Positions 29,673 to 63,773 of a stretch of 64,000 nt of DNA are shown here, piece after piece; the stretch's first letter is position 1; the number at the start of each line of letters is the position of its first letter. This DNA comes from Bdellovibrionota bacterium. Its GTDB lineage: Bacteria > Bdellovibrionota_C > UBA2361. Made by a program: the position numbers and the translations under genes. Location: contig JBILDU010000001.1 of the NCBI GenBank assembly GCA_044352465.1, positions 84,211-148,210 on the forward strand, read 5' to 3'. The notes below the pieces were generated by a model. It saw nothing but the letters and a program-made list of their open reading frames with translations. It had not been told where the DNA came from and searched no databases.

Positions 29673-29707
29673 AGGTAGTTAGCAGAGAATAGAGTGAGAA
29701 AAAATTC

Positions 29708-44341: not shown

Positions 44342-45108
44342 CGGTGGCGTTAGAGATCGGCGGAAAGAAGCTCGCCTCGAGGCTTTTTCTGGGTACCGGA
44401 AAATTCAGCTCGGCCGCAGTGATGCGTGAAGCGGTCGCGGCGTCTGCAAGCGAGCTTGTGACGGTGGCGCTCAAGCGGGTGAACGTTCGAGCGGAAATAG
44501 ACTCCATGATCGAGCACTTAAACCTTCCGGGGGTAAATCTTCTTCCGAATACCTCGGGGGTTCGTACGGCGAAGGAAGCTGTTTTGGCGGCACATCTTGC
44601 CCGCGAGGCGCTGGAGACGAATTGGCTTAAACTTGAGATCCATCCTGATCCTCAGTATCTCCTCCCCGATCCAATTGAGACGCTCCTTGCGTGTGAGGAA
44701 TTAGCAAAAGACGGCTTTATTATCTTGCCCTATGTCAACGCGGATCCGGTGCTGTGCAAGCGGCTCGAGGAGGCGGGGGCTGCAGCGGTGATGCCGCTCG
44801 GCGCTCCTATCGGGAGTAACCAAGGGCTTCAAACGAAAGCGATGCTCGAGATCATCATCGCCCAGAGTAACGTTCCGGTGGTTATCGATGCGGGGCTGGG
44901 AGCCCCCTCCCATGCGGCGGCGGCGCTTGAGATGGGAGCGGCCGCGGTGCTCGTGAACACCGCGATCGCGGTGGCGGGTGATCCGGTTGAGATGGCCCGG
45001 GCATTTCGTGAGGCGACGGTGGCGGGGCAGCGCGCACGAGAGGCCAGTCTGGCGCGGCCAGAGGTGCGGGCTGTGGCATCGAGTCCTTTGACAGCGTTCT
45101 TAGATTAG
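44338..45108 (+). CDS. thiG: thiazole synthase
   Basis: Motifs [20 protein letters not shown] and [21 protein letters not shown]. Confidence 0.9.
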
Positions 45109-45113
45109 TACGT

Positions 45114-46256
45114 ATGAGTTTTGAGAACGTTCTCGAGACATATCGGTGGGAGGAGATAACGGCACAGATAGATGCCGCCTCGTCCCGTGATGTTGAGCGT
45201 GCCCTTCAAGCGACGGGACGTCGATCGTTTGAGGATTTTCTCGCGCTGGTTTCTCCCGCAGCGCGCAACTATCTTCCCCTTATGGCGGAGGAGAGCCAGC
45301 GAGTCACCCAACGGCGATTCGGAAAAACGATTCAGCTCTATGCACCGATGTATCTCTCTAACGAGTGCCAGAATATCTGCACCTACTGTGGGTTTTCCTT
45401 TCATAACAAAATCGCCCGAAAGACCCTGATAGATGAGGAGATCCTCCGCGAAGTCGGAGTGATAAAGTCATACGGGTATGACCATATCCTGCTCGTCTCG
45501 GGCGAAGCCCAAAAAACGGTGGGGAGCGATTACTTTGAAAACGCGGTTCGGCTTATACGGCCGCACTTTAGCCACATCTCGCTTGAGGTACAGCCGCTGG
45601 AGGAAGTGGAGTATCGGCGGCTTATGGAGGCGGGTGTCCAGACGGTGCTCGTCTATCAGGAGACCTACAACCGGGAGCGCTATAAGAGCTATCACCCGAA
45701 GGGTAAGAAATCGAACTTCTCGTATCGGCTTGATACGCCGGAGCGGCTCGGGCGAGCGGGGATATATAAAATAGGGCTCGGCGCGCTTTTGGGGCTTGAG
45801 GAGTGGCGGACCGATACGGCGTGTGTCGCACTCCACCTTGCATATCTCCGGAAGAAATTTTGGCGCACAAAGTTTTCGCTCTCTTTCCCGCGGCTTCGCC
45901 CCGCGGAGGGGTATCTTGAACCGAACGTCGTGATGACCGATCGGGACCTTGTGCAGCTTATCTGTGCATTTCGGCTTTTTGATGAGAACGTGGAACTTTC
46001 GCTTTCTACGCGGGAGAGCCCGAAGTTTCGGGATAATGTGGTGCAGCTTGGGGTGACCTCGATGAGCGCCGGCTCAAAGACCGAGCCCGGTGGGTATTCA
46101 CAACCCCACGCAGCGCTCTCCCAATTTGAGATAAGCGACGAGCGAACGCCCGCAGAGGTCGCTCAGATGATCGCGGCGCAAGGCTATGAGCCGGTATGGA
46201 AGGATTGGGATCCTGTGCTTGAGGGGGGAGCTTCCCCCAATAATGGGGCGCTCTGA
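45114..46256 (+). CDS. thiH: 2-iminoacetate synthase (radical SAM tyrosine lyase)
   Basis: Radical-SAM CxxxCxxC within NICTYCGFS and the ThiH-specific C-terminal domain. Confidence 0.85.
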   Translation: MSFENVLETYRWEEITAQIDAASSRDVERALQATGRRSFEDFLALVSPAARNYLPLMAEESQRVTQRRFGKTIQLYAPMYLSNECQNICTYCGFSFHNKIARKTLIDEEILREVGVIKSYGYDHILLVSGEAQKTVGSDYFENAVRLIRPHFSHISLEVQPLEEVEYRRLMEAGVQTVLVYQETYNRERYKSYHPKGKKSNFSYRLDTPERLGRAGIYKIGLGALLGLEEWRTDTACVALHLAYLRKKFWRTKFSLSFPRLRPAEGYLEPNVVMTDRDLVQLICAFRLFDENVELSLSTRESPKFRDNVVQLGVTSMSAGSKTEPGGYSQPHAALSQFEISDERTPAEVAQMIAAQGYEPVWKDWDPVLEGGASPNNGAL

Positions 46257-47377
46257 TGTCCGTTGACCGCGAACGGTTTAGCCGCCAGATAATGCTCCCC
46301 GAGTTCGGAGAGGTTGGGCAGCGCCGTCTTTTAGACGCGAGCGTCCTTGTTGTTGGCGCGGGCGGACTTGGAAGCCCGGTGCTCCTGTACCTTGCGGCAG
46401 CGGGTGTTGGACGGATCGGGATTGTTGATGGCGATACGGTGGCGGTGCATAACCTCCACCGTCAGGTGCTCTTTCATGATAACGATATTGGGAGCAAAAA
46501 GGCGGAGTGTGCCGCACGGGAGGTCTCAGCCATTTTCCCCGGTGGTCGGGTCGATATCGTTTCAGCTCCGTTAACACCAGAGAACGCGCGCGAGGTGGTT
46601 GCCCCGTACGATCTTCTGGTCGACGGGACCGATAATTTCTCCACCCGGTATCTCGTCAATGACGTCTGCGTTGAGCTTCAAAAGCCGTGGGTATCGGGAG
46701 CTGTGTTTAGATTTTCAGGGCAGGTAACGGTTTTTAACGTGCTCCAAAAAAACGGTGCACGGGGTCCCACCTATCGGTGCCTGTTTCCCGAGCCCCCGGC
46801 ACCGGAGAAGGTGCCGGGATGTGGAGAGAGCGGTGTCCTCGGCGTTGTCCCTGGTGTCGTGGGCACCGTCATGGCGTCTGAGGCTGTAAAGCTCCTCGCT
46901 GGGATCGGTGATGTTCTCTCGGGGAAGCTCTGGACCTTCGATGCGCTTACCAATGCGAGCCGAACGGTCGAGTTTGAGCGAGAGGACGCCGCTGGTGCTG
47001 CCCGAGTGAAGAGTGCTGAAGAGTATCGATATCTGTGTGGAGTAAAGACGGAGGCAACAATGAAAGAGATTACCCCGAGGGAGCTTAAAGCGAAGCTCGA
47101 TGCGAAAGAGGATTTTACCCTTATCGATGTGCGCGAACCATTTGAGCGGGATATCGCTACGATCGGTGGAGTTTCGATTCCCCTGGCTGAGGTCGTAAAT
47201 CGGGCAGGAGAGATACCCAAAGATAAACCGGTGGTGATCTATTGCCGTAGCGGCGGGCGAAGTGGCCGCGCATGCGCTGAGCTTGAACAGCGGTTTCAGT
47301 TTAAAAATCTTATTAACCTTGCAGGTGGAATCCTACGGTGGAGCGACGATGTCGATCCGGCGGTGAAAAAATATTGA
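46256..47377 (+). CDS. thiF: ThiF/MoeZ-type E1-like adenylyltransferase fused to a C-terminal rhodanese domain
   Basis: Nucleotide-binding motif VLVVGAGGLGSP. C-terminal rhodanese active-site IYCRSGGRSGRA. Start overlaps the thiH stop (TGATG). Confidence 0.8.
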   Translation: MSVDRERFSRQIMLPEFGEVGQRRLLDASVLVVGAGGLGSPVLLYLAAAGVGRIGIVDGDTVAVHNLHRQVLFHDNDIGSKKAECAAREVSAIFPGGRVDIVSAPLTPENAREVVAPYDLLVDGTDNFSTRYLVNDVCVELQKPWVSGAVFRFSGQVTVFNVLQKNGARGPTYRCLFPEPPAPEKVPGCGESGVLGVVPGVVGTVMASEAVKLLAGIGDVLSGKLWTFDALTNASRTVEFEREDAAGAARVKSAEEYRYLCGVKTEATMKEITPRELKAKLDAKEDFTLIDVREPFERDIATIGGVSIPLAEVVNRAGEIPKDKPVVIYCRSGGRSGRACAELEQRFQFKNLINLAGGILRWSDDVDPAVKKY

Positions 47378-47617
47378 GGCTTCGCCTCACAGCCGAAATC
47401 CAGCGCTCTTCGGATATTTTGCGATCGGAATGGGGATCGAGAGTCTCAGCCGCCCCAACTCTCGTCGTACGTAATCCCAATCGAACTCAATCGTGCTGAA
47501 GAGGATGTCCTTTAAGTCATCGAGATCTTGAAAGGGGAATAAACCCCACCACCGGTCGAAGACCCAACTTCCGAATAACCCGCTCAGCGGTTTTCAGTGA
47601 GTCCTTGGGTTTCTCCG

Positions 47618-47986
47618 TCACCGATGCGAAATCGACATCCCGTGTGCCCCGCGCCTGAGTGCGATAAAGACTCCCCGCGTGTCCAACCACGAGGCAGTAC
47701 CGGGCGTTGGGGCTCTCGACAACAGCAATTCATATGCTTTGAGGAATGCGGCGATAGCAGCTCGGTCGGTGTCGCCGCAGGTGAGCGCAAAACACCGTCG
47801 ATTCCCTCGCCTGGTCTCTGTGAGAAGCCCCGCTTCCAAGAGCCGGCGAAGGATGTCCGAGACCCCGGAGGGGGAGAGCTTATACTCATGAGCTAGGGCC
47901 CGTAGATGCCGGGGCTCGGGAGCGTAGGAAGTCGACAAGGGAAGCGGGCATACAAATAATGTCCGATTTATCGAACAGTATGGCAA
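47618..47986 (-). CDS. hypothetical small protein, possible winged-helix
   Basis: 122 aa. The segment SPSGVSDILRRLLEAGLLTETRRG looks HTH-like. The assignment is weak, and the long minus-strand ORF here may be chance. Confidence 0.25.
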   Translation of the reverse strand: MPYCSINRTLFVCPLPLSTSYAPEPRHLRALAHEYKLSPSGVSDILRRLLEAGLLTETRRGNRRCFALTCGDTDRAAIAAFLKAYELLLSRAPTPGTASWLDTRGVFIALRRGAHGMSISHR

Positions 47987-48301
47987 GGATGCGAACGGCG
48001 CTCTGACCCGAGCTGGTCGTCGCTCATAGAGTCAACGGTGCAAAAAGAGCGAGCTTTGACTCGACATGAGAGAAATCACTCCGATATGGACACACGGAGT
48101 ATGGTTACTCAATGAATTGATCGCTATCTCTGCGTGGGCCGGCGTGGATGCTTTAGTGGCTGGTAGGCATGAACTGCAGACAGTCGACGCCACAACCAAA
48201 ACGAGAATGGTCGGTGAAATAGAGAGATCAAGATTTCCAGAACAAAACCTTCAACAAACGAGAGCAGTCACAACAAGAGGGATCACCACCTCTCACCGAG
48301 G

Positions 48302-48340
48302 GCACCGGGGTTCGACGTATCGCTACGTGAACCCCGGTGC
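48302..48340 (-). terminator. 39-nt near-perfect extended hairpin immediately 3' of csrA
   Basis: Sequence GCACCGGGGTTCGACGTATCGCTACGTGAACCCCGGTGC has a 12-bp GC-rich stem. The loop region is itself palindromic. Confidence 0.45.
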
Positions 48341-48366
48341 GTGGTGAGTCCTCCAGCCGGTATCGC

Positions 48367-48711
48367 TCAGTGGATACCGGGGAAGTTCGATTGACTTCCC
48401 ACGATCGCCGCACGGAGAACCGGATTGGTGGATGTGGGGGTCCTCCCAATCAGCTCGTTGCGGATGATGGGGATCTCGATGGGAGCGTTCACGAGAACCA
48501 TGACCTTCTTGGGATGAATCTCGGCGATCCCGATCGAGATTTCCGCGAACATGAACGTGTCGCCGGCGCCGACAGTTGTCTCGATGTGGAAACCCCTGGG
48601 CTCCTTCGTCTTGACGATGCTGATGCGAGCGAATCTCGTTCCGACCGATAGGATCTTCAGCGTGTACTCTCCGATGAAAATCTTCTCCCCCGTCCGACGC
48701 GTAAGCTTCAT
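48367..48711 (-). CDS. csrA: CsrA-family RNA-binding protein, atypical single-chain tandem (pseudo-dimeric) form
   Basis: GGAGG RBS then ATG (MKLTRRTGEKIFIGE...). The protein is about 114 aa. Residues 1-38 resemble CsrA strands beta1-beta4. Residues ~50-104 (FHIETTVGAGDTFMFAEISIGIAEIHPKKVMVLVNAPIEIPIIRNELI) resemble a second CsrA copy that includes the VNAP...R.E motif. Confidence 0.6.
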   Translation of the reverse strand: MKLTRRTGEKIFIGEYTLKILSVGTRFARISIVKTKEPRGFHIETTVGAGDTFMFAEISIGIAEIHPKKVMVLVNAPIEIPIIRNELIGRTPTSTNPVLRAAIVGSQSNFPGIH

Positions 48712-49086
48712 ACGAACCTCCATGTCTGAACCACCTTCGCCTCTGTCACATCGTGTGGCAGAATCCATGCGAAAGTTCGCTCGGCGCTGAGGCCCTCTCG
48801 ACCTTAACAGCGAACGAACTCCCCCATGGAGCGAAACCCTTCTACCCAGAAATCTTGACCATGCAATTTTAAGCGTAATGATTCCGCTAAGCAAATCGGG
48901 TGGATGGGTGATTTTATTCGAGCTATTTGACTAAGTTTACCTCAGCTCGTACTCTCGTTTCCGTTGGACTGAAATGGGTAGCGTAGGTCCACGTTTGATT
49001 CCTCTCGGCGAGTGGGTTGCCCCCCACCCAAGCCTTGGTGAAATCGTTGAAACCGAAGGTAACTTCGGCTCGATTCGTCATGTGTT

Positions 49087-52000
49087 TTGGAGTGGTGCAT
49101 GTTCGGCAACGCGTTCGGCAGTCAGAGCTCTCCGGTAAATCTCCACGGTATCGAATTATCTTTCTTGAAAGGTGCGTGGTGCTCCAGCTTCGCTGTGTTT
49201 TTCGGTCTCTTTTTTAGTGGGGCTGTCGAGGCCTCCCCCCCCATCTCTGGTACCCCAACAGCGCCGAGCTGCAGCAGTGCTGGGTTTGATCTCGCGCGGC
49301 GATATTGCTGTTGTAAGCCCCGTCATATCGGGTTTGCGGTAGCTGAAAATCTCCTAGCGGAAGGGGTTTTTTCAGAGGCGACTACGCTCGCACCTCCGAG
49401 AGGTGTGTCGAAACCGATCGCGTTTCTATGCCGGAATGCCAATCCGTGGGAGAGCCCCACAGCGCCGCTCAATCCAGCGACAAGCGCGTCATCGTTGAAT
49501 GCTGCCGGAGCGCTCTGCCGTTGCGATCCAGCAACCGCTAATCGCTACTGTGATGGGCCGACTCCTACTCCCACGCCGTCGCCAACCCCAACACGAACGC
49601 CGACACCGACGCCGACAAGCACCCCGACGCCCACCCCCACACCAATAGTGACTCTCTCTCCATCGCCCGAACCGGAGGTGACCGTGACCCCACCGCCGGT
49701 GGTGACTATCGATCCTGGAAATGATCAAAGCCCCAATTGCGAGATATCGGGGCGTGTTCCGACGCCGCTCCCACGGCCGGCTCTTCGCCTCACGGAGCGC
49801 AGGCTCCGGGCGTGGAGCGATGTAGGAAACCGCTCGGACATCGAGTCGTCCGCAGAGCCGGAACGCTCAGCAGTCGAGGAATGGGGAGCTTGGGGGGGGC
49901 CGGGACGGGTCGTGATGGTTGGGCGGTACGATAGTAACTATAACGGGCTGCCCGACTTTTTAGACGGGATAGAGGGAATTGAGAGCCTCGATCGGATCCG
50001 ACAACAGAATGGCATTCCGCGCAGCTCGACGAGCCGTCACTTCGTGATGATCGAGGTTGAGATCGAGGGGGGAGCACCGGCAGCCTACTACGTGCCGGAT
50101 CGGATGGCGCCGGGTGGGGAGCGGATTGAGTCGCCGAGCTTACGCATCGACTACAGTGGTTCGCCCCTTCTCCCGGACCCAATCGGGTGTCCTTTTTTTC
50201 GGGGGCTTCAGGCCGCGTGGGGGTCCTCGGGTGTGACGTGGGGGGGGTACGATGAGCGTGTTGCCTCGACCCTCGCAGACTGTGGACTATCCTCCGGTGG
50301 TTGGCGGGTTTGGACTAAAAACGGACAGTATCTTCGAGATGCGCGCTCAGTCCCCGCTGGTGGAGATTACGTCCCCTCAGGGATCGAGATCCCTCTCCAC
50401 AATCTTGATACCTCGGGGAATCGGGTCCGATTTTACGTTGAAGCTACCCCGCTGGGAGAGTTAGCTCGCGATTTCGATATCACGCTTCGTTATGGGCGAG
50501 TGATATCGGGAGACACGTTACCGCGGGAGTCGGTATCACACGAGCGGGTTAGCCTTCTACCGGTGGATCTTATCTATCAGGATGCGCGGACACACGGGCC
50601 GATCTGGGTCTCGCCTGAAGACGGATCCCGCGACCCTGAGGGTGAGGTGAGACTAGCACTCGACCGAACTTTCGCGCCGCGACTCCCGGCCCTCTCACCG
50701 TCATGGAGCGCTATCGATGCCGATTCGGGTGCATTCCTCGTTCAAGGAGCGCTTACCGATGGAGCTTCGCTTATCAGTATCGCGCTGCAAGAGCGTTTGG
50801 AGGGGCGTTACCAAGGGGGGGGCAATCCACTTCGCCGTTACGCAACTTGGGCGGATGACAATGGGAACCAGCACTGTTACACCCCGTTTGAAGATAATGT
50901 TTTCCTTGGTATTCGCCGTAAGGGTGGTCCGCTTCAAGGCGAGGAGCAGCCGGCTAATCTGCCGAATGTGTACGGTGGCTTCCATCCGCCGATCGGACCA
51001 CATGGGGAGCTTAATCTCTTACCAAGGATGCCGATGCCGAGCGACTCCGCGACCGCAGAGGAGTGGGGATACTCGACGAGGATCAATCTGGGGAGTGGTA
51101 TCCGACCCCAACGGTACCCCGTTTTGAATGCGATCGGGGGATATTACCTCCCACCCAATAACTTTATCTCGGGTCTCGCGCCGGGTGATAACGACTCTCG
51201 ATACGGTGGTGGTTCGATCGTGCTTGAGCGCTCGGTCAATCAACCGGAGGAGGTTGCGCCGATGGAAGTGGTGCTCTACCGACGGGTAGGGAGCCGAGTC
51301 GTTGTATTAGAGGTTCAGCCGTTCTATCTTCGGCGGCCTCCGGTGGTGTTGGTGCACGGCATGAACGGTGATGGTCGGGATTACTGGCCGTGGGATCTGT
51401 GGGCCGAGCGTAATCCCACGCATCTAGACGGCTTACCAACCCGGATCTATCGCGCTGACTACAGTTTCTCGGCAGGGCTCGGCTATACCGAGAATTTTAC
51501 CGCGGTGCCAAAAGCGATTCAGCAAGCGCTTGTGGAGTACCGTTGGGCTTACGACAACACCTTTGTTCCACCCCCTGATGCAACCGGACCTGTTGAGCCT
51601 CCCTTCGATCCGCCGGCGGTGATGCCCCATCCTTCTTTCGGATTTTATGGGGACTCACACCGGGTCTATGCGTGGCACCGACCGGAGCGTGCGTTTAAGG
51701 GGATCAACTACGCAGCCACCCGGGTTGATGTTGTAGCCCATAGTATGGGGGGACAACTGGTTCGCACCTATGTCTCGAATCTTGGTGATAACACCGGTAT
51801 GACCGGTGTAACACGTGCCCATCCCGATACCCGCCGAAAGCCGAGAGGGGCTGTGGATTTCTCGATGCCGGCAGCGTTAATCCCAGGCACCGGAGTGCCT
51901 GGCATTCCGGCGCGGTTCCAGAACCTACGACTGCAGATCCCACCGCGGATTGACCGAAGCGGGGATAGTTGGACTTTCTGGTACGCCGCGGATCTTGAGG

Positions 52001-53013
52001 CCTCTCGGTTGCAGATACCGAAGTATCAGCGAAGTTTTAACTATGGAACCGGAGATATTCGGCGGTTTATTCCGATCGGCTCGCCTTTTAAAGGTGCTCC
52101 CGCTGCGTGGATCACTGAGCGGGCCTACTCACCATCTCAAAGAACTTTTTGGAATACTATTCTAAGCCAGTACGGTGGCTCTTCGGCAGCCGCTCAGTGG
52201 CTCAAAGATAACAATTTGGTAGATCGGAGGTCGAGTTTTCCGCTCTATCCGACCTGCCATGCCGATCTTGTGCCGGGCAGTCGGATCCAATCTCTTCTTG
52301 AGGAGGAAAACCGGTATCCAGAGGGCCGCTATAGCGTGAGTTGGTCGCCGATCGTTGGACAAGCTATGCGTCATCACGCGATCGAGTTGTCTCGACTAGG
52401 GATGTCCGCGTTTGTTGTTGAACGGTGCGATCCATTCTGTGTCCAGCCATGGGAAGTTGCGTGGCAGCAGCTCATGACGTCGATCTATGGAACTCCGGAT
52501 ATCAGCGAAAGTTGGTATCCCAACGGTACCCATGACGATATGGTCGTGCCGGGCTTTTCCCAACGCAATGCTGGGATCGGCAGCCGGCTTGTACGGACAT
52601 ATGAGTATGGGGATTACGAAGACCAAGGTGGCAGGCGGATCATCGTCGATGAATGGGATACGATCTTCCCCCAGGTTAGTGCGGATTCAGAGTGGATCAC
52701 CGGCTCGCGCGAGTACCCAAATTCCGGGCTCGGTACTACCGTTGTGGAGCTACCCCATAGTCGGTCCCGTGTCATGCAACTACGGCTGTTAAGCGATCTT
52801 CAACAGATACTTGGTCTTGAGAGCATGTTCTCTTCGGATCTCCTCGAGGCCCAAAACGGTGGGCGGTTCACCCCGAATGGGTGGGACTATCGCGAGAGTT
52901 CCCTCTTGAGGATGGTTCTCGAAACGCTCCGTGGCGCCGAGGGATTACCGACCAACGTCGCGGACTCATCTGCTGGCCCAGCCGGCATGAGTCGTAATTC
53001 ACTAGGACGGTAA
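49087..53013 (+). CDS. giant secreted protein with a Pro/Thr linker and a lipase class-2 (Lipase_2/PGAP1-like) alpha/beta-hydrolase domain
   Basis: 1308 aa. Signal peptide ...FAVFFGLFFSGAVEA. PTPTPTPSPTPT linker (residues ~155-200). Lipase_2-type motifs PVVLVHGMNGDG and VDVVAHSMGGQLVRTYV (GxSxG), then candidate Asp/His in CHADLVPGS and GTHDDMVVPG. A possible alternative TTG start lies near 49165. Confidence 0.7.
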   Translation: MEWCMFGNAFGSQSSPVNLHGIELSFLKGAWCSSFAVFFGLFFSGAVEASPPISGTPTAPSCSSAGFDLARRYCCCKPRHIGFAVAENLLAEGVFSEATTLAPPRGVSKPIAFLCRNANPWESPTAPLNPATSASSLNAAGALCRCDPATANRYCDGPTPTPTPSPTPTRTPTPTPTSTPTPTPTPIVTLSPSPEPEVTVTPPPVVTIDPGNDQSPNCEISGRVPTPLPRPALRLTERRLRAWSDVGNRSDIESSAEPERSAVEEWGAWGGPGRVVMVGRYDSNYNGLPDFLDGIEGIESLDRIRQQNGIPRSSTSRHFVMIEVEIEGGAPAAYYVPDRMAPGGERIESPSLRIDYSGSPLLPDPIGCPFFRGLQAAWGSSGVTWGGYDERVASTLADCGLSSGGWRVWTKNGQYLRDARSVPAGGDYVPSGIEIPLHNLDTSGNRVRFYVEATPLGELARDFDITLRYGRVISGDTLPRESVSHERVSLLPVDLIYQDARTHGPIWVSPEDGSRDPEGEVRLALDRTFAPRLPALSPSWSAIDADSGAFLVQGALTDGASLISIALQERLEGRYQGGGNPLRRYATWADDNGNQHCYTPFEDNVFLGIRRKGGPLQGEEQPANLPNVYGGFHPPIGPHGELNLLPRMPMPSDSATAEEWGYSTRINLGSGIRPQRYPVLNAIGGYYLPPNNFISGLAPGDNDSRYGGGSIVLERSVNQPEEVAPMEVVLYRRVGSRVVVLEVQPFYLRRPPVVLVHGMNGDGRDYWPWDLWAERNPTHLDGLPTRIYRADYSFSAGLGYTENFTAVPKAIQQALVEYRWAYDNTFVPPPDATGPVEPPFDPPAVMPHPSFGFYGDSHRVYAWHRPERAFKGINYAATRVDVVAHSMGGQLVRTYVSNLGDNTGMTGVTRAHPDTRRKPRGAVDFSMPAALIPGTGVPGIPARFQNLRLQIPPRIDRSGDSWTFWYAADLEASRLQIPKYQRSFNYGTGDIRRFIPIGSPFKGAPAAWITERAYSPSQRTFWNTILSQYGGSSAAAQWLKDNNLVDRRSSFPLYPTCHADLVPGSRIQSLLEEENRYPEGRYSVSWSPIVGQAMRHHAIELSRLGMSAFVVERCDPFCVQPWEVAWQQLMTSIYGTPDISESWYPNGTHDDMVVPGFSQRNAGIGSRLVRTYEYGDYEDQGGRRIIVDEWDTIFPQVSADSEWITGSREYPNSGLGTTVVELPHSRSRVMQLRLLSDLQQILGLESMFSSDLLEAQNGGRFTPNGWDYRESSLLRMVLETLRGAEGLPTNVADSSAGPAGMSRNSLGR

Positions 53014-53028
53014 TAAGCGAGGGGTTGT

Positions 53029-54528
53029 ATGAGGAACGACACTGTTACGAAAGCAGCTTTATTCGCCGCGGGCGGTACGACCTTGGCCTCGTTGGGATTC
53101 GGTGCGTTTCATGAACGGAGCGTCCATGGCCCAGACTTCACCGCGAATCATGAGGCCTATCCGAGGAGCGTAACAACGCACGGTGAGCCGATAGCTCGCT
53201 CCCGTACCTCGCCCGGCGCCTTGGGACTCACGATGGCGGGGGTTGCGGGTATCGAGCGACTCTACGGCGACCGGTCGGAGTTGGCTCAGGAGCTCATCGC
53301 GACGACAACCCTGCAGGGTAAGATCGGTGCGACGTTGGCGCGGCTGAAACGGGCCTACAGCGAGGGAATAGAGCGAGGGGACCGTACCGGTGTCATTGAG
53401 GAGACGCAACGACTGGAGCGATTAGTTTCGACCCTCGACCGGACCGTGCTTGCGATACCACTCGACCCCAGTGGTGATAGAGCAAAGACGGTGGGAAGTG
53501 CGTTACAAGGGGTAGTCGTGCCATCTCCGTCAACGCCGAACTGGCACGATCTGATAGTGAGCTGTGAGAAGATCGAAGCGCGGCTACTCCCCCATGGGAG
53601 TCCCGATGTGGGGCTCTCTATCGATAGCACACTGTCGAATCTGAGAGATCAGCTCGGGATGTTAACACGCCCAGACTATTTACCGAGTGATAACAAAACT
53701 GCGCCGAGTAGTATGAGTATGTATGCTGCGGTACGGCTCGGGAACTCGGTGCCCGGTATCTCGACCGTACGATGGCTTATCTTGCCCCATGCGACGGTGG
53801 CGCAAGAGCTGCAGGGGCTCATGCGCCAACTGGGTGCTGATCGCGAGCTCCTGGTGAGATGGTCTAAAGATAGTAGCCAATTTGCATCGATGTGGGGGGA
53901 GCTATCCCCGATCGGGCGAGAGTATGTGTCTGTTCAATCGCTCGCGCTCGCTGACGGAACCAAAGCGCCGACTCGCGTCACCGTGGTCTCACCCGACGAG
54001 CGGTATCTGCTTGAGGCAGGCAAGGAATACGCCCGCACTCGGGAGGACTTATTTCGAGCCTATCGAGAACTTATGAACCCGGCCGATGGAGGATTCGCCG
54101 ATAATGAATTCGATGTACAGCACGTCGTTGAGCGGGCGTCGAAGCTGCGGGATGACTTCGTCCGGTCTCTCCCGAAGACCTCAACCCGATACCTCGAACA
54201 GTTATCGATGGCCATCACCGCTCAAGATCGCGAGGCGTGTCTGACCGGAGCGAATACGTTAATGACTGAGACATTCCCCGAGGGGCCGATGGTGAGAGCT
54301 GAGATCGAATCAGCCCGTGAAACTCTCGCAGCGGTCATCACAGCGCTCGAAGGAGACACAGCGAAGGGAGCTCCTATCGCGATCGGACTGGCGAGCACCA
54401 TCACGTGGGCGAGGCAATGCCTCGATCCCGCCGCTGAGAATTCGTTTTCTGCGGTGAAGTCCGGCACAGTTGAGCGGAGTCTCGAACTCGCCCGAGATGC
54501 GACGATGCGGAGCTTCATTCGGCCGTGA
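53029..54528 (+). CDS. hypothetical helical protein encoded 16 nt downstream of the lipase-domain gene
   Basis: 499 aa. N-terminal hydrophobic anchor KAALFAAGGTTLASLGFGAF. The rest is predicted helical and Ala/Leu/Arg/Glu-rich. No motif recognised. Confidence 0.5.
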   Translation: MRNDTVTKAALFAAGGTTLASLGFGAFHERSVHGPDFTANHEAYPRSVTTHGEPIARSRTSPGALGLTMAGVAGIERLYGDRSELAQELIATTTLQGKIGATLARLKRAYSEGIERGDRTGVIEETQRLERLVSTLDRTVLAIPLDPSGDRAKTVGSALQGVVVPSPSTPNWHDLIVSCEKIEARLLPHGSPDVGLSIDSTLSNLRDQLGMLTRPDYLPSDNKTAPSSMSMYAAVRLGNSVPGISTVRWLILPHATVAQELQGLMRQLGADRELLVRWSKDSSQFASMWGELSPIGREYVSVQSLALADGTKAPTRVTVVSPDERYLLEAGKEYARTREDLFRAYRELMNPADGGFADNEFDVQHVVERASKLRDDFVRSLPKTSTRYLEQLSMAITAQDREACLTGANTLMTETFPEGPMVRAEIESARETLAAVITALEGDTAKGAPIAIGLASTITWARQCLDPAAENSFSAVKSGTVERSLELARDATMRSFIRP

Positions 54529-54633
54529 CTTCGGCGAGCTCAGTCTCACGGAGCTCGAAAGCAGAGATGCCGAAGAAGCGAGCACTCGGCCCCCCGGACC
54601 GATGTTGAGATAAAAAACTTTCCGCTCGAAGCA

Positions 54634-56727
54634 CTATCCCGGAAACTTAAAGACCGTCCAAAGGCTACTGTATCGATCGGTCCACAAGCGGGTACGCCGC
54701 TCGATCGGAGTCGTCGCAGGCGCGATTTCGGGATGATTGAGAAAACTTTGATTGCGGGTGATGATCACGGAATCGCTCGGGGATCTCAATTCAGATGGCA
54801 TGCCACCATCGGTAAGAAGCGCGCTGTGCAGTTCGGCTTTATGGGCAATCGTCGCGAGAACCGGTGCCAGGTCGATGTAGAAATTGGAGATGTGAAAAAC
54901 AAGCACTCCCTCCGGCTTCAATTTCGTGAGGTAGCTCCTTATCGCCTCATCGGTGAGAAGATGAGTTGGGATAGCGTCACCGCTAAAAGCATCAAGAAAA
55001 ATTACATCGAACGGTTCGCTGTCCCACCGTTCAAACTCGAGTCGCCCGTCCCCAATACTTACCGTCACCGTACCACGACTCTTTGAGAGAAAAGTGAACC
55101 GTTCTTGGGCGATCTGGTGGACGGTTGGATTCAATTCCACGAAATGATAGCGGTCGCCGGGGCGTGCGTAGGCGGCCACGGTGCCGATGCCGAGTCCGAC
55201 AACTCCGACTGAGATAGGTGCTCCCGAGAACGTGCGTAACACCCGCCCGATAGCACTTGTCGGGCCGTAGTAGGTGGTCGGGTCGAGCTCTTGTGATTCC
55301 TCGATTCGCTGAATGCCGTGGATGGTCGAGCCGTGACTGAATTCCCGATAGGCTGACGGTCCTTGCGTTCGTTCGGTGACTTTTAGAACTCCGTAAAAGT
55401 TGCGGGTGATGAGGTTTGATTGGCCCGGAGAGCCTTGTTGAGTCCGATCGAACGTGAGGAGACAGATCCCGAGGGCGAGGAGTACGAAAAGGGGGAGCGG
55501 CTTAACCGGTCCGGTGGATTGTTGCCGATCGAGGCTCCACCGATGAACCAGCAGTGGCGCTGCAATAGCCAAGATGAGCTCGAGGTTTTGCGAGAAGATC
55601 AGCGGGGCCCCGATGCCGACGAAAAGACCTCCCAGTGCCCCCCCGAGCGCGAGTTGACGGTAAAAACGGGGTAGGGCTTGTGGGGCGGGCCGCGAGCGGG
55701 CGAGCTCAGTGTGGCACACCAAGCAACCTAGCGTCATAGTGACGAGAAGGCTGAGCATCGAGAGCGCCGGTCGACCGAGATATGCGGCGCCGAGGTAGCT
55801 AAAAAGAGCGAGGATATAGAGCGGGAGGCACCATTTGAGGTAGTCGCTCCGGAGCGAACCGAACGCTACCGTGAAGGTCGCGAGGTAGAGGGCGAGGGGA
55901 AGCACCCACAAAAGGGGCACGGGGGCGATATCGGCCGAGAGGTGGTGAGTCGTCGAGAGGAGTAACATCACCCCGAATGCCGAGGTGGCTATCCAAAAAA
56001 GCTCGTCACCGCTCCGGACGCTCGGCTGTGCCACCTGAACCATTTGACGGACGGGCGCGGGTTCTTTTGAACGAAGAGCGGTGATGTAGATACCGATCGC
56101 ACCAAACGCCATGAGCCACAGCACGGATTGCCACAGCGACATCTGGATAGGCAGGTCAAAACGAGGTTCAATCAGAAAAGGGTAGGTAAGGAGTGCGAGG
56201 AACGAAGCACCGTTCGAGAGCGCATAGAGGTGGTAGGGGGTGCGATCCCGAAAGGTATGTAGCCAGTGCTGACAGAGCGAGCTTGTCATCGAAAGAGCGA
56301 TAAACGGTAATCCGACGGTGTGGCCGAGCAGAAAAAGAATGTGCACCGTGGGTTGAAGCGTTTGATCTGCGGTGCTTTGCAAGAGCGTGGTGAGCGGGGA
56401 GAAAAATCCCGCTGCGATGAGGAGCCCGCTGAAAACGATTATCTGATAGCGTGGGGAGATAGCGACGCTCAGTCGATCGACCGCAAGATAGCCAAGATAG
56501 AGAGCGCACTGAAAAAAGACGGCGCAGGTTACCCATACCGCCGCGGCTCCGCCAAATTTAGGCAGGAGCACCTTTGCAACCAGTGGCTGAATTTGGAAGA
56601 GGAGAAATGCTCCCAAGGTTACCTCGAGAGCGATGAGTAGGTAGAGGGGGTCTACAGCTGAGGGGCGGCTCGCCCGAGCGGGGTCAGCCGAAGTTTCGCG
56701 GGGTGCATCGGTCAAGGTACCTGACAT
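54634..56727 (-). CDS. polytopic membrane domain fused to a spermidine-synthase-like aminopropyltransferase domain
   Basis: 697 aa with about 12 TM helices. C-terminal motifs VGVVGLGIGTVAAY, FDVIFLDAFSGDAIPTHLLT and GVLVFHISN. Confidence 0.65.
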   Translation of the reverse strand: MSGTLTDAPRETSADPARASRPSAVDPLYLLIALEVTLGAFLLFQIQPLVAKVLLPKFGGAAAVWVTCAVFFQCALYLGYLAVDRLSVAISPRYQIIVFSGLLIAAGFFSPLTTLLQSTADQTLQPTVHILFLLGHTVGLPFIALSMTSSLCQHWLHTFRDRTPYHLYALSNGASFLALLTYPFLIEPRFDLPIQMSLWQSVLWLMAFGAIGIYITALRSKEPAPVRQMVQVAQPSVRSGDELFWIATSAFGVMLLLSTTHHLSADIAPVPLLWVLPLALYLATFTVAFGSLRSDYLKWCLPLYILALFSYLGAAYLGRPALSMLSLLVTMTLGCLVCHTELARSRPAPQALPRFYRQLALGGALGGLFVGIGAPLIFSQNLELILAIAAPLLVHRWSLDRQQSTGPVKPLPLFVLLALGICLLTFDRTQQGSPGQSNLITRNFYGVLKVTERTQGPSAYREFSHGSTIHGIQRIEESQELDPTTYYGPTSAIGRVLRTFSGAPISVGVVGLGIGTVAAYARPGDRYHFVELNPTVHQIAQERFTFLSKSRGTVTVSIGDGRLEFERWDSEPFDVIFLDAFSGDAIPTHLLTDEAIRSYLTKLKPEGVLVFHISNFYIDLAPVLATIAHKAELHSALLTDGGMPSELRSPSDSVIITRNQSFLNHPEIAPATTPIERRTRLWTDRYSSLWTVFKFPG

Positions 56728-56842
56728 AAGGAGATAAAAAAGAAGCGTAGACTCGTCGCGTGTCTATGTGACGGCATCTTTCGCGATCTCTCAGTCCTCG
56801 CTACGATTTCAGTCCGGCACGCCTGTTTAATGAGGATACAAT

Positions 56843-57910
56843 ATGCAGCCCGTCAGAGCTATCGGTAACGCAAGTCCGACCGCCGAATTGAAACCGATTG
56901 AGATTCCCCGGCGAGAGGTCGGTGAGCACGATGTAGAGATTGAGATCCTGTACTGTGGTATTTGTCACTCCGATCTTCATACCGCTCGAAACGAGTGGTC
57001 GATATGGCCAACGGTCTATCCCTGTGTCCCGGGGCATGAAATCATCGGACGGGTGAAGAGCGTCGGCCCGGGAGTCACTCGCCACACCGTTGGGGCGATG
57101 GTGGGAGTCGGGTGTATGGTCGATTCGTGTGGGGCCTGTGGAAGCTGCCAGGAGAGCCTCGAGCAGTACTGTGATACGGGCGGGACGATTTTCACCTACG
57201 GGACTCCTGATCCTCACGGAACAGCACCGGTTACTTACGGTGGGTACTCTGAAAAGATAGTAGTCAACGAAAAATTCGTCCTCAAAGTATCGGAAAAGTT
57301 GAATCCAGCGGCGGCCGCGCCGCTTCTCTGTGCTGGCATTACGCTGTATTCGCCCCTCCGTCATTGGAAAGCGGGACCGGGTAAAAAAGTGGGGATCGTA
57401 GGACTCGGTGGGCTTGGCCATATGGGGGTTAAATTCGCTCACGCCTTTGGGGCCGAGACGGTGCTTTTTACGACATCGCCCGGCAAAGTTGCGGATGGTA
57501 AACGTCTCGGCGCAGATACGGTTGTCATATCGAGCGATGCGGGAGCGATGGCGCAGCATACGCGCTCTTTTGATCTCATCGTCGATACCGTCTCCGCAGC
57601 CCACAACCTCGATCCGTATATCGGTCTTCTGAAGCGGGATGGCGCGCTCGTTTTGGTCGGAGCACCGGAGCATCCGCATCCCTCTCCGACGGTGTTTAAC
57701 CTCCTTCTGGCGCGGCGTTCGGTTGCAGGGTCAGGCATCGGTGGTATTCGTGAGACTCAGGAGATGCTCGATTTTTGCGCGGCCAAGGGAATCGCCTCGG
57801 ATATTGAGCTTATTGGTGCAGGAGAAATCAATCGGGCGTATGCGCGGATGTTGGAGGGCGACGTTAAGTACCGGTTTGTTCTCGATATGGAGTCGCTACG
57901 CGGAAGGTAG
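56843..57910 (+). CDS. zinc-dependent NAD(P) alcohol dehydrogenase (cinnamyl-ADH-like)
   Basis: Motifs GHEIIGRV, the structural Zn Cys cluster CGACGSCQ...C, and GLGGLGHMGVKFA. Confidence 0.8.
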   Translation: MQPVRAIGNASPTAELKPIEIPRREVGEHDVEIEILYCGICHSDLHTARNEWSIWPTVYPCVPGHEIIGRVKSVGPGVTRHTVGAMVGVGCMVDSCGACGSCQESLEQYCDTGGTIFTYGTPDPHGTAPVTYGGYSEKIVVNEKFVLKVSEKLNPAAAAPLLCAGITLYSPLRHWKAGPGKKVGIVGLGGLGHMGVKFAHAFGAETVLFTTSPGKVADGKRLGADTVVISSDAGAMAQHTRSFDLIVDTVSAAHNLDPYIGLLKRDGALVLVGAPEHPHPSPTVFNLLLARRSVAGSGIGGIRETQEMLDFCAAKGIASDIELIGAGEINRAYARMLEGDVKYRFVLDMESLRGR

Positions 57911-58108
57911 TTGGTAAGCGAGTCGCCATCGGTGCGACTCCTATGCCCTTCAAGAACGTCGGGAGTAGAGGGGCCGCGCGCGCCGTCTGGGGGGGCGAAG
58001 AGCCGTCTTTCAGATGGTCGCTCGGCCGAATTTCCCGTCATAGGGTGAATACCGATCGCCTCTCAGCTTTATCAAAGCTGCAAGGTGACTGGTCATAACA
58101 TCTTGCGC

Positions 58109-58576
58109 TTAGGAGACCCGGCGTCGCCGGATCTTCAGCAAAGAGCGCCCCTCTGGTGCGGCACTCTCTCCGTCGACGCGGAACGTTTCCCACCTTACCT
58201 GGCCGTCTTCGATGAGTTTTTTAAGCCGTTGTTGAGATTCGGAGAGACGTGCGCCCCCCGATTTCACCTCAATGAAAGTGATACCCTCCGCGGGATCGAA
58301 ATGAATGAAGTCGATCGGCTGACCGAGAAAAACGGTGCTCGTGCCGTCTTTCTTCACATCAACGGGAAAGTCCTCAAGTATCGGGGCTAGCGACTCGGCG
58401 ATCTTTCCGGTGCGAACCTCAGAGCTTTTTTTCTGCGAGAGAATCGCTGCAATACGGGCATCAAAGGAAAAGAGCCACCAGAACAAGGGCTTCGCGAGGA
58501 GGATCGCGACGATCGCCACGGTGATGAAGCTCGCGATGCGATGGGTGGAAACAAAATCGAGGATAGTCTGTCCCAT
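58109..58576 (-). CDS. membrane-anchored PD-(D/E)xK endonuclease-like protein (COG4741-like)
   Basis: 155 aa. N-terminal TM segment (IASFITVAIVAILLA). Motifs DFIHFD ... ITFIEVKSG ... QRLKKLIE fit the Hjc-like D...ExK arrangement. Confidence 0.45.
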   Translation of the reverse strand: MGQTILDFVSTHRIASFITVAIVAILLAKPLFWWLFSFDARIAAILSQKKSSEVRTGKIAESLAPILEDFPVDVKKDGTSTVFLGQPIDFIHFDPAEGITFIEVKSGGARLSESQQRLKKLIEDGQVRWETFRVDGESAAPEGRSLLKIRRRRVS

Positions 58577-58640
58577 CGAATCGCCGCGGCCCCTGCGTCC
58601 TCATCTCCTGCGCGCGCTCTATTTGTTTGAGCGCGGCCCC

Positions 58641-59159
58641 TTAGTGGTGGTGTCCCCCCGGTCCGTGAGCGTGCCCGTGCTCAAGCTCTTCCTTTGTCGC
58701 GGCACGAACGTCGATGACCTCGACATCAAAAGTGAGTGTTTTCCCGGCAAAGGGGTGATTCTGGTCGACGGTAACGGTGTCTTTGTTCACCTTCGTGATT
58801 CGCGCAACCGCGACCTCACCATCGGGCGCGGCGAATTGAAAGATCGCTCCGACTTTGAGTTCTTTTTTGTCCTTGAATTGGCTCTTTTGTAATTCCGCGA
58901 CAAGCTCTTCGTCGTAGTCGCCGTATCCGTGCTTGGGGGCGATGTCGACCGAAAATTTAGCTCCGATCTCTTTTCCCGAGAGAGCCTTTTCCAACCCGGA
59001 GATGATCTGATCATGGCCATGCAGGTACATGAGTGGCTCTTCGCCCCGCGATGACTCGACCTTTTTGCTCCCTTCTTTGACGGTGTAGTGGATCGAGACG
59101 ACCTTATTTTTGGCGACTTTGTCTTTCATGTCTTCCTTCATCGGATAGCCCGAGGTCAA
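58641..59159 (-). CDS. slyD: FKBP-type peptidyl-prolyl isomerase SlyD
   Basis: FKBP domain with an IF insertion and a His-rich C-terminal tail (HGHAHGPGGHHH). The likely start is an internal Met near 59129-59141. Confidence 0.8.
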   Translation of the reverse strand: MTSGYPMKEDMKDKVAKNKVVSIHYTVKEGSKKVESSRGEEPLMYLHGHDQIISGLEKALSGKEIGAKFSVDIAPKHGYGDYDEELVAELQKSQFKDKKELKVGAIFQFAAPDGEVAVARITKVNKDTVTVDQNHPFAGKTLTFDVEVIDVRAATKEELEHGHAHGPGGHHH

Positions 59160-59228
59160 GGATACCGGGTTATTTCATTTCCGCCAGTAGGGTGTTCGTC
59201 GAGCCGCTTTCTTCGTGCCTCGACGAGC

Positions 59229-59396
59229 CTACTCGCGGGAGGCCGTGTCGCGGGGGGATGAAGGCGTGGCCTTCTTTGAGCAGCCACATTTTTTGCCGCA
59301 GCCACGTGATGACATCGCGTGAATTCCGCCGAAAAGAAGCCAGGCGACCGCACCGAGACCAAGCATAACCAAGATGATGTTCTCTAAGGTTGGCAT
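59229..59396 (-). CDS. FeoB-associated Cys-rich small membrane protein (not in the supplied ORF track)
   Basis: My translation gives 55 aa (MPTLENIILVMLGLGAVAWLLFGGIHAMSSRGCGKKCGCSKKATPSSPRDTASRE): one TM helix followed by a CGxxCGC motif. The ATG lies 4 nt after the feoB stop. Confidence 0.55.
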   Translation of the reverse strand: MPTLENIILVMLGLGAVAWLLFGGIHAMSSRGCGKKCGCSKKATPSSPRDTASRE

Positions 59397-59400
59397 CACA

Positions 59401-61509: not shown

Positions 61510-61576
61510 GAAACTCGTTTCACTCAGTGACTGCGACTAACTCGGCGTGAAGTCGCTGGGGCGCTCTCTTGTCGGC

Positions 61577-61861
61577 TTAGGCGAGCGCGACCTCTACGTG
61601 ACGCGCCTCCGAGCGACGCAAGGAAAGGCTGTATCCCAACGCTTGAATCTTCATCGGATCTCCCAGCGGGGCTATCGACAGGACCTCGATCTTTGTTCCA
61701 CTGACGATTCCCATCGAGAGAAGTTTGTTACAGAGCGTTTTATTCTCGTTTGAAACTCCGACGACAACCCCTTTCTTACCGCTCGGGATTGAGTCGAGGG
61801 TGGCCCGGCGCTCCGGTACCGACAAGTCGCTAGAGACATCGAGAGCCAGAGCGTTTGCCAT
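61577..61861 (-). CDS. feoA: ferrous iron transport protein A
   Basis: About 94 aa from the internal Met (MANALALD...). FeoA SH3-like motif LLSMGIVSGTKIEVL. Sits upstream of feoB. Confidence 0.7.
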   Translation of the reverse strand: MANALALDVSSDLSVPERRATLDSIPSGKKGVVVGVSNENKTLCNKLLSMGIVSGTKIEVLSIAPLGDPMKIQALGYSLSLRRSEARHVEVALA

Positions 61862-62084
61862 ATCGAGACCTCGAAAATGAGAGACTGAGAAAACGAGAAA
61901 CCTAGAAAATAGGGCTCTGTTTTTTATAAAAATCTTTGCTCGTGAGTAATTGAGAGGTTTTGGGCCGGACCTCCAATAACGAGCCAACTCTGGTAACCCT
62001 AGGGCAGATATGGGTGGTGTGTCAAGTTGTTGGTTGGGGTTGCGCTTGTTTGCTATATCAAGCGCTAATCTTGATTAGTTTAGT

Positions 62085-63095: not shown

Positions 63096-63512
63096 GTCGA
63101 GTAGTAACTTTATATGGCCTTTGTGGCGCGAGCTCCGGGTTCATTGCCACCAAAACCGCAGAGCGGGGGGCTTAGCCCTGATAAGACTATCGGCGCACCG
63201 CACGATGAGCTTCACCGGGTAGTCGGCATCCTCGACTGGCCCTTATTGACGGCGGTTCTTGGCTAAGCTCCTCGGTAAAAGCAGAGTGGTCAGATTTACG
63301 GCCCCGTCCGGTATTTTTAATGGGTGGGGCTAGTTATTTCAGCCTCTTGCGGCAGTCCGGCATCGGGTGAGTTCTCTAGGCCGCTAAAAGCGCTGAGGGC
63401 GTGAGGATTTAGAAAACGATTTGAAAAATAATCCTTATGTAATTTTGTCATGTTACACTAACGGCTGTAGGAAATTTTTAACCACCTTGAAATTAGTGTG
63501 GACACTCGATAG

Positions 63513-63567
63513 GTGCACACATATACCTAGTATGTTGGGTGGTCGAGAGACACAACATATAGTGATT
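63513..63567 (+). promoter_or_regulatory. candidate pair of NrdR-box-like palindromes upstream of the nrd gene
   Basis: ACACATATACCTAGTATGT and ACACAACATATAGTGAT lie in an AT-rich leader and resemble the NrdR operator consensus acaCwAtATaTwGtgt. The match is imperfect. Confidence 0.3.
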
Positions 63568-63773
63568 CGGTGGGTAGTTTTGGCGCCGCAGTCACTAAAG
63601 ATAACGAAAAATAGAACAAAAGTTTGGCCATCGGGTGTGGTCGCGGGCTTGTTTTGTCTTCAGTCGTGAGTGGGTGTCGCTCGGAAGCCGAGCTTACGTT
63701 GTAAACACGAAATACGGCGTAAATTAGGATAGCGAGCAAACTAGAAAAGCGCAGTTGAGGGGAGAGGCGGTTA

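Follow-up and report, generated by a model that had tools for sequence, protein, structure and literature searches.

A predicted exported lipase-like enzyme and its tightly linked downstream partner from an uncurated bacterial family

We describe a pair of adjacent genes, here called A and B, in a 64 kb stretch of bacterial DNA (the window, meaning the whole stretch that was analysed). A encodes a large multi-domain protein ending in an alpha/beta-hydrolase domain with a conserved catalytic triad, and B, 15 nt downstream, encodes a 499-aa protein of very narrow distribution. We take A to be a lipase-like enzyme that has a partner of its own, which may act as an inhibitor, as a foldase or in another role. 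The reading that we favour, at a probability of roughly one in three, is that A is an exported lipase-like enzyme and B its dedicated self-protection inhibitor. The linkage of the two genes is probably functional, because relatives of A nearly always have a tightly coupled exported partner and because B was never found without A.

Results

Layout and Reading Frames of the Locus

The locus comprises the following features (window coordinates; residues of A are numbered from its ATG).

48712..49098, no strand: intergenic region from the csrA-like gene to A, 97-98% identical between strains as against 83-93% in the adjacent coding DNA
49099..53013, + strand: gene A, exported multi-domain protein of 1304 aa (1308 aa with the TTG at 49087)
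49099..49233, + strand: predicted Sec signal peptide of A, residues 1-45, ending in FFSGAVEA before SPP (cleavage read from the sequence)
49234..49551, + strand: Cys-rich N-terminal stretch of A, from the translation (dN/dS 0.44)
49552..49716, + strand: Pro/Thr-rich linker of A, residues ~152-206, from the translation
49816..51198, + strand: middle region of A, residues ~240-700, with homolog blocks q240-295 and q398-466
51301..52803, + strand: C-terminal alpha/beta-hydrolase domain of A, residues ~735-1235, bearing insertions specific to its clade and of the family I lipase type
51742..51744, + strand: predicted nucleophile Ser882 in AHSMGG (Ser886 in TTG numbering), invariant in A3 and A4
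52537..52539, + strand: predicted catalytic Asp1147 in HDDMVV, nearly invariant column D423 of A3
52756..52758, + strand: predicted catalytic His1220 in ELPHS, nearly invariant column H496 of A3
53014..53028, + strand: A-B spacer of 15 nt with the Shine-Dalgarno-like GAGGGG of B
53029..54528, + strand: gene B, lineage-restricted partner protein of 499 aa (dN/dS 0.23)
53053..53109, + strand: N-terminal hydrophobic segment of B, residues 9-27 (KD 1.41), following R2 and K8

The first-pass annotation had described A as a 1308-aa protein. The open reading frame does run to 53013, but this length holds only from the TTG at 49087; the likely start is the ATG at 49099, which has a GGAG 6 nt to its 5' side, and ENA gives a length of 1304 aa in its gene call for the identical protein. 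The ~240 codons at the start are coding, because the frame is open and free of indels in three strains, which are 83-93% identical over this part, and because dN/dS is 0.26-0.44 there. A later GTG start near residue ~242, the one chosen for L002 and L001, was rejected, since the frame ahead of it stays open and is subject to purifying selection in every strain; the shorter calls for A (1065 and 924 aa in other assemblies) are gene-caller artefacts. Against L002, dN/dS of A is 0.22, and both reading frames are under purifying selection (dN/dS ~0.22); for neither gene does dN/dS point to diversifying selection.

Upstream, the divergent csrA-like gene noted earlier was confirmed at 48367-48711 on the minus strand. 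Promoters and a 5' leader presumably lie in the intergenic region between it and A; a search of this region against Rfam returned no family and a chance miRNA match only, and promoter and terminator scans stayed at background level. The divergence of A and B between strains was considered as toxin-immunity diversification and rejected: the upstream thiF is equally divergent (dS 0.42), for which reason the pattern looks like the boundary of a recombination block and not like a feature specific to the pair.

The N-Terminal and Middle Regions of A

A starts with a signal-like segment, AWCSSFAVFFGLFFSGAVEA followed by SPP, whose hydrophobic core has a KD of 1.56 over 19 aa, in keeping with the signal peptide and the PT-rich linker first proposed for this protein, the latter being evident in the translation. 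The linker matches low-complexity sequence only (in internalin and TonB) and alone accounts for the similarity of P0003 to A. A word-indexed search with full-length A returned the protein itself and near-identical sequences only; the linker probably swamped its candidate list. No homologs were found for the Cys-rich stretch. The middle region had been presented as ~450 aa rich in beta structure and of no known function. It is absent from Pfam, which was also negative on the homologs of its blocks, and the beta-rich character holds for the part that was modelled, residues 540-724. This region includes the acidic motif DSNYNGLPDFLDG and a V.GA.TDGAS module common to the family of A.

A Family I Lipase-Like Hydrolase Domain

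Motifs described as exact for Lipase_2/PGAP1 are present as strings (VVLVHGMNGDG at 749, VDVVAHSMGG at 876), but calling them exact was too strong: Lipase_2 (PF01674) reaches 15.3 bits, short of its cut-off of 20.3, and covers just 24 residues (875-898), and the Pfam search gave no PGAP1 (PF07819) match in A. Taken alone, A falls below every Pfam cut-off, and only 7-8 of 68 homologs match the Lipase_2 or PGAP1 families at E<1e-3. At the level of its own family, the alpha/beta-hydrolase assignment is supported. A has a (G/A)-H-S-x-G-G elbow, an H-G oxyanion motif and Ser, Asp and His in canonical order, the triad being conserved, and all blocks of A3, the alignment of its family, are present in it (LRRPPxVLVHG, AATRxDVVxHSxGG, GxIRRFxxxGSPFxGS, SDLxV and the C-terminal His). 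The A3 profile scores 338 bits on the window's A, which is itself among the 31 rows of A3. The hydrolase is predicted to be catalytically competent through Ser882, Asp1147 and His1220.

By a family profile built from 118 remote homologs (E<=1e-3) and by an AlphaFold model, the nearest neighbours of the domain are the bacterial family I "true" lipases, which are the best sequence-profile and Foldseek PDB matches of this enzyme family. The comparators are P. aeruginosa LipA (1EX9) and Burkholderia cepacia/glumae lipases (1HQD, 1YS1, 1TAH, 1CVL) for I.1/I.2, B. subtilis LipA (1I6W) for I.4 and a Geobacillus lipase (1KU0) for I.5. A and these lipases share an alpha/beta-hydrolase core and the Ser-Asp-His triad, and both show PxxLVHG at the oxyanion strand, (G/A)HSxGG at the nucleophile elbow and, past strand 6, a G-[ST]-P-x-x-G-S block, although the alignment is confined to three short blocks (with the family profile, E is about 1e-7). 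Unlike family I lipases, the domain of A is ~500 aa long with large clade-specific insertions and lies at the C terminus of a 1304-aa multi-domain protein. Lipid may be the substrate of A; the fold neighbours of the domain also include thioesterases and esterases.

A belongs to an uncurated family, mostly from Planctomycetota, whose hydrolase domain is always C-terminal; FG-GAP, dockerin, TSP3, fn3 and PPC are among the other domains seen in homologs. A metagenome scan with the A-clade alignment, whose patterns are too generic, gave one weak locus.

B Is a Lineage-Restricted Protein

The tight spacing first reported for B, with its start 16 nt past the end of A, was confirmed, and GAGGGG precedes the ATG. 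B had been called N-terminally anchored: a hydrophobic segment is present but weak, and residues 9-27 are predicted to form a weak signal anchor or an uncleaved signal, followed by a linker-like low-complexity stretch. As first remarked, no motif can be recognised in B; it has no match in Pfam, NCBIfam, PDB or PADLOC (the last also negative on A), and in a search of 5.8 billion proteins all its homologs fell within a single species-level cluster, its own. B had also been called highly helical; its single-sequence AF2 model mixed alpha and beta elements at a pLDDT of 36, and was unusable. Homology of B to other helical-looking partners is marginal, with an E of 0.014, a shuffle p of 0.005 and an hhalign E of 0.09. 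In hhalign, B (entered as two near-identical rows) gave no significant match to the partner at 11710-13230 of L004 (E 0.09) or to that at 8258-9277 of L021 (E 0.17).

Enzyme and Partner Are Linked across the Family

Do relatives of B occur without a lipase neighbour? On the contigs read, B was never apart from A: at 6 of 6 places shown from the 7 contigs carrying B, A lies directly upstream at a distance of 15 nt. At 14 related loci, the stop of the hydrolase gene overlaps or directly adjoins the start of a downstream gene for an exported protein, and this translationally coupled partner belongs to a beta-sandwich family unrelated to B. The beta-sandwich partner is ~350 aa long and has a cleavable-looking signal peptide and Ig-like/CarboxypepD_reg-like signals; its profile, D5, finds only weak Ig/transthyretin-like matches in PDB, plus spurious CheY matches. 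B itself compares to D5 at E 4.3, and the locus of A thus has no downstream D5 partner.

Set against these 14 loci are three with the other partner type, as helical-looking partners occur only in the clade of A itself (A, P0005, P0006). Partner type follows the hydrolase clade (bootstrap 97% for A with P0005, 64% with P0006 added) and changed only once on the hydrolase tree, and partners diverge much faster than enzymes. One locus (L007) has two tandem partner paralogs and another (L008) two tandem enzyme-partner modules. Signal peptides were found on A, on the partners and on P0006, the one homolog whose N terminus was examined. The closest parallels are uncharacterised modules from Phycisphaerales/Planctomycetota (L005, JAHBXB010000003.1 in GCA_019636655.1; L008, JAXMAE010000003.1), which share with A the C-terminal hydrolase family (profile E 1e-100 to 1e-175), the V.GA.TDGAS and FYxPP modules ahead of the hydrolase and a tightly linked downstream exported gene. 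Unlike the clade of A with its helical-looking partners, they use the ~350-aa beta-sandwich partner with a signal peptide.

Discussion

How might B serve the enzyme? We envision a scenario whereby A would be a Sec-exported multi-domain enzyme acting outside the cell or at its surface, and B would be co-transcribed with A, translated separately from its own Shine-Dalgarno site and sent to the same extracytoplasmic compartment by its N-terminal signal or anchor. There, B may bind the hydrolase domain during envelope crossing and keep it harmless to the producer's membranes until release. Conceivably, such a self-protection inhibitor would follow a logic resembling that of PhlA/PhlB or Tle/Tli, yet be Sec-dependent and unlinked to type VI secretion (T6SS). 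In Serratia (PhlA/PhlB) and Yersinia (YplA/YplB), a secreted phospholipase A1 is encoded with a downstream accessory inhibitor, and the likeness to A and B lies in the scheme by which a lipolytic enzyme is secreted while a small accessory protein, co-transcribed with it, shields the producing cell. PhlB, in contrast, stays in the cytoplasm, and the export of PhlA is flagellar.

We favour inhibition because a single enzyme family is served by two partner folds that seem unrelated, and also because of the tandem partners, the tandem modules and the faster divergence of the partner. On the other side, the FG-GAP, dockerin, TSP3, fn3 and PPC domains of the homologs suggest surface-attached degradative enzymes over toxins. 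Two further observations were counted against inhibition, namely dN/dS values free of any diversifying-selection sign and the marginal homology of B to other helical partners.

Alternatively, B may have no role directed at the enzyme and be an envelope anchor, an adaptor, a substrate-binding accessory or an unrelated passenger in the operon of A, which we consider possible, if doubtful. It would fit this that B is an orphan, seen in a single species-level cluster, that its kinship with the other helical partners is not established and that a 15-nt spacer, rather than overlapping codons, separates it from A; the adhesion and anchoring domains of the homologs make an accessory surface role plausible. 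Against it speak the recurrence of a downstream exported partner at the 14 and three loci, with overlapping start and stop codons, the single switch of partner type and the constant company of A and B.

A steric foldase analogous, but not homologous, to Lif, that is, a membrane-anchored periplasmic chaperone yielding an active and secretion-competent hydrolase, seems to us unlikely. Lif folds family I.1/I.2 lipases into their active form, and the Lif-dependent Burkholderia and Pseudomonas lipases are the best sequence-profile PDB matches of the enzyme family. Foldseek also lists LipA from the A. baumannii LipA:LipB complex; it ranks the I.5 and I.6 lipases (Geobacillus, S. hyicus), which are not known to use Lif, above I.1/I.2. 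The layout is also Lif-like (as for LipH and LipB): the gene lies directly downstream of A and encodes a weakly hydrophobic N-terminal anchor, then a linker, in a protein predicted to reside outside the cytoplasm, and translational coupling would imply stoichiometric co-production. By family, however, the proposal that B is a Lif did not hold. B is 499 aa long, Lif foldases ~340 aa, and it has no detectable similarity to them (no Lipase_chap match at E<=1 in Pfam, no Lif chain at E<=10 in PDB). The motif RxxFDY(F/C)L(S/T)A, conserved in mini-domain 1 of Lif (PMC7046727), is absent from B and from the L004 partner even with up to 4 substitutions. In most relatives of A, the partner is a beta-sandwich protein bearing a cleavable-looking signal peptide, whereas Lif is TM-anchored and alpha-helical (PMC7046727), and tandem partner paralogs as in L007 would be unusual for a chaperone.

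T6SS effectors carry their own known delivery domains and are not known to have Sec signal peptides. That A is a Tle-type effector of this system and B its Tli immunity protein is largely refuted and highly improbable: A has a Sec signal peptide and no match to Tle families, Tle4 (4R1D) is missing from the top profile and fold matches, B matches no Tli family, the N-terminal domains of A homologs are adhesion/surface-type modules, and Hcp, VgrG, PAAR and other T6SS genes are absent among the ORFs annotated in the 64 kb window and in the related loci examined. The locus does resemble Tle4/Tli4 (TplE/TplEi) and other such pairs in that a GxSxG-type hydrolase precedes a partner predicted for the periplasm, in that partner families vary between enzyme clades and in that distant relatives of A match PF07819, the Pfam family of Tle4 (PMC9846239). 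Both original proposals, lipase with foldase and toxin with immunity protein, survive as functional analogies only, and neither anticipated the beta-sandwich partners.

From an abstract perspective, and tentatively, the locus may represent an undescribed class, centred on Planctomycetota, of Sec-exported lipase-like enzymes with obligatory co-translated exported partners of at least two unrelated folds, one a beta-sandwich and the other fast-evolving and helical, with B founding a new inhibitor or foldase family that has no known sequence relative. If B is a passenger, the locus is an ordinary secreted hydrolase beside an orphan gene. If B controls the hydrolase, as in the self-protection that we favour, the pair would be a Sec-dependent lipolytic enzyme-partner system independent of T6SS and Lif, in a phylum where secretion is poorly understood, and the family would offer a case of natural partner replacement within one enzyme family. 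Expression of these lipase-like enzymes, seen only in metagenomes, in a foreign host may then be safe, or yield active protein, only together with the partner gene.

Reading frames and strain comparison

The first-pass annotation proposed two co-oriented open reading frames and a csrA-like gene diverging from them; all three are borne out, the first frame running from 49087 or 49099 to 53013.

Features of the locus
48367-48711 (-): csrA-like gene, divergent from gene A
48712-49098: intergenic stretch from which the csrA-like gene and gene A diverge
49099-53013 (+): gene A, putative exported 1304-aa protein with a C-terminal lipase-like alpha/beta-hydrolase domain
53029-54528 (+): gene B, 499-aa protein
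54634-56727 (-): convergent gene, 697 aa

The most likely start of gene A is ATG 49099; a GGAG lies 6 nt 5' of it, and an identical protein is annotated at 1304 aa in an ENA assembly. In two related strains, L002 (94% DNA identity) and L001 (88%), gene callers chose a GTG start that corresponds to residue ~242. The 237 codons 5' of that GTG are open and indel-free in all three strains and show a dN/dS of 0.26-0.44, from which we infer that the signal peptide, Cys-rich stretch and PT linker of A are translated. Against L002, dN/dS is 0.22 for the whole of A and 0.23 for B.

The intergenic region is 97-98% identical in the three strains (adjacent coding DNA 83-93%), and its final 100 nt 5' of A are 100% identical; it has no Rfam match and may be a regulatory leader. 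Of the 114 residues of the csrA-like protein, only 57-88 are covered by the Pfam CsrA model; by eye its N-terminal half (MKLTRRTGEKIFIGE...) looks like CsrA too, a hint of CsrA duplication or fusion. Between thiF and this gene, L002 (2887-5172, against window 47534-48221) carries genes absent from the window, encoding an AbiEii-like toxin, a 128-aa partner and a HEAT-repeat protein, so that this spot is variable between strains. Divergence from L002 is mosaic: dS is 0.23-0.42 for ThiF, A and B (window ~44500-54530) and 0.03-0.04 for the 697-aa gene, an ADH gene and feoB just downstream (54600-64000), pointing to recombination with a breakpoint close to where B ends. The near-identical 697-aa gene (dS 0.04) matches the PADLOC mad2 model (MADS defence system) at E 4e-10 and has a weak match to Methyltransf_24.

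The hydrolase family

On its own, A stays below all curated cut-offs (its Pfam Lipase_2 score is 15.3 bits against 20.3, over 24 residues around AHSMGG), and its NCBIfam and PDB matches are low-complexity hits to the PT linker only. An exhaustive HMMER scan with residues 216-1308 recovered 118 remote homologs of 179-2004 aa that have three blocks in common.

Blocks common to A and its homologs
Block 1: oxyanion strand, LRRPPVVLVHG
Block 2: nucleophile elbow, AATRVDVVAHSMGG
Block 3: second half of the alpha/beta-hydrolase, GDIRRFIPIGSPFKG ... SDLxV ... H

Ser882, Asp1147 and His1220 (numbered from ATG 49099) are invariant or nearly so, and the extracted segment reaches the protein C-terminus in 39 of 41 homologs with a complete domain. 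Against the PDB, the family profile finds first the Burkholderia/Pseudomonas family I.2 lipases 1hqd, 1ys1, 1tah and 1cvl (E 7e-8 to 3e-7) and next Bacillus LipA; some homologs match Abhydrolase_6, Lipase_2, Palm_thioest, DUF676 or PGAP1 weakly. Further domains in homologs are extracellular or surface modules (FG-GAP, dockerin, TSP3, fn3, Calx-beta, PPC), and carriers among named genomes are mostly Phycisphaerales and other Planctomycetota. The middle region of A (residues ~240-700) has homologs and no Pfam family. The sequence evidence shows A to be a multi-domain protein with a predicted export signal and a Ser-Asp-His hydrolase of lipase type; this hydrolase forms a new branch, so far uncurated, within a well-known superfamily.

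Gene B and partner genes at related loci

Gene B follows A after a 15-nt spacer containing GAGGGG. Its protein begins MRNDTVTK; the next 19 residues are moderately hydrophobic (KD 1.41), and this N-terminus has neither lipobox nor twin-arginine motif. B is a co-oriented, separately translated partner, predicted to be targeted for export. A single-sequence AF2 model (pLDDT 36) is too low in confidence to show helicity. B is an orphan: it matches nothing in Pfam, NCBIfam, PDB or PADLOC, and its sole relative among 5.8 billion proteins is 90% identical and from the same species-level lineage. Seven contigs carrying the exact B protein were read, and A lies directly upstream in all six places shown.

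Across 20 loci surveyed for the gene downstream of a hydrolase homolog, one ~350-aa protein family occupies that position in 14 cases (L005, L006, L007, L008 with two modules, L009, L010, L012, L014, L015, L016, L022, L024, L025). All 10 N-termini examined have a signal peptide, and most members give sub-threshold Big_1 or CarboxypepD_reg beta-sandwich signals; the family has no Pfam coverage above cut-offs. The partner's start codon and the hydrolase stop overlap or are at most about 40 nt apart, and the two genes are translationally coupled. L007 has two partner copies in tandem, L008 two tandem enzyme-partner modules.

Against this family's profile B scores E 4.3, and hence is not of the beta-sandwich type. 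The hydrolases closest to A, P0005 (locus L004) and P0006 (L021), are likewise each followed by a non-beta-sandwich protein.

Partners of the hydrolases closest to A
L004, after P0005: 506 aa, Sec/Tat-like signal
L021, after P0006: 339 aa, TM-like anchor, start directly after the stop codon

Similarity of B to the L004 partner is marginal (BLASTP E 0.014 with 26% identity across 263 gapped residues; shuffle p 0.005; hhalign E 0.09), with an FPEGP motif in both; the L004 and L021 partners have a short motif in common (p 0.01), and B and the L021 partner are not significantly similar (p 0.08). A neighbour-joining tree built on the hydrolase domain unites A with P0005 (97% bootstrap) and these two with P0006 (64%). 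This clade is nested among enzymes with beta-sandwich partners, which implies a single change of partner type, in step with the enzyme clade. Enzyme-partner linkage is family-wide and clade-specific. A DUF6502 gene (L004 5127-6020) lies about 2 kb upstream of P0005, the closest hydrolase homolog; in the window, at 7023-8740 (-), a DUF6502 gene is paired with a CarboxypepD_reg protein.

Discussion

How might the partner serve the enzyme? The first-pass annotation saw either a lipase with its foldase (Lif) or a lipase toxin with its immunity protein (Tle/Tli), and membership of neither group is supported. B matches neither Lipase_chap nor PDB Lif chains, and it lacks the Lif motif RxxFDY(F/C)L(S/T)A (PMC7046727), also at a tolerance of four substitutions; the fit is limited to its place in the gene order and its N-terminal anchor. 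As for Tle/Tli, A has a predicted signal peptide, the 64 kb window holds no T6SS, T2SS or T9SS genes, and Tle4 (4R1D), which contains a PGAP1-like domain (PMC9846239), is not among the structures nearest to the hydrolase. Gene content in the window is housekeeping (thiamine and menaquinone biosynthesis, proS, asd, imuB-dnaE2, feoAB, an MFS transporter, nhaA). An apparent imuA'-imuB-dnaE2 mutagenesis cassette spans 26358-32246 (-), with Pfam matches for the DnaE2-like and Y-family polymerase genes only and none for the third ORF (31239-32246). Surface-type domains in homologs and no sign of diversifying selection argue against a toxin role. Lif-like or Tle/Tli-like roles may nevertheless hold as functional analogies.

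We envision that the partner would act on the enzyme in the cell envelope. Passage of a lipolytic enzyme through the producer's envelope is a known hazard, which accessory proteins counter in PhlA/PhlB and Tle/Tli. That hazard, the tandem duplication of partners, their divergence far faster than that of the enzyme, and the service of one enzyme family by two apparently unrelated partner folds lead us to favour, at a probability of about 0.35, B as a self-protection inhibitor of A. A partner without a direct role on the enzyme is a serious rival, tenable if doubtful. A foldase non-homologous to Lif, with which gene order and anchor would agree, is likewise a serious rival, although we consider it unlikely. 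The enzyme-plus-partner layout itself is a known theme; the unusual part is the swap of partner type within one enzyme family.
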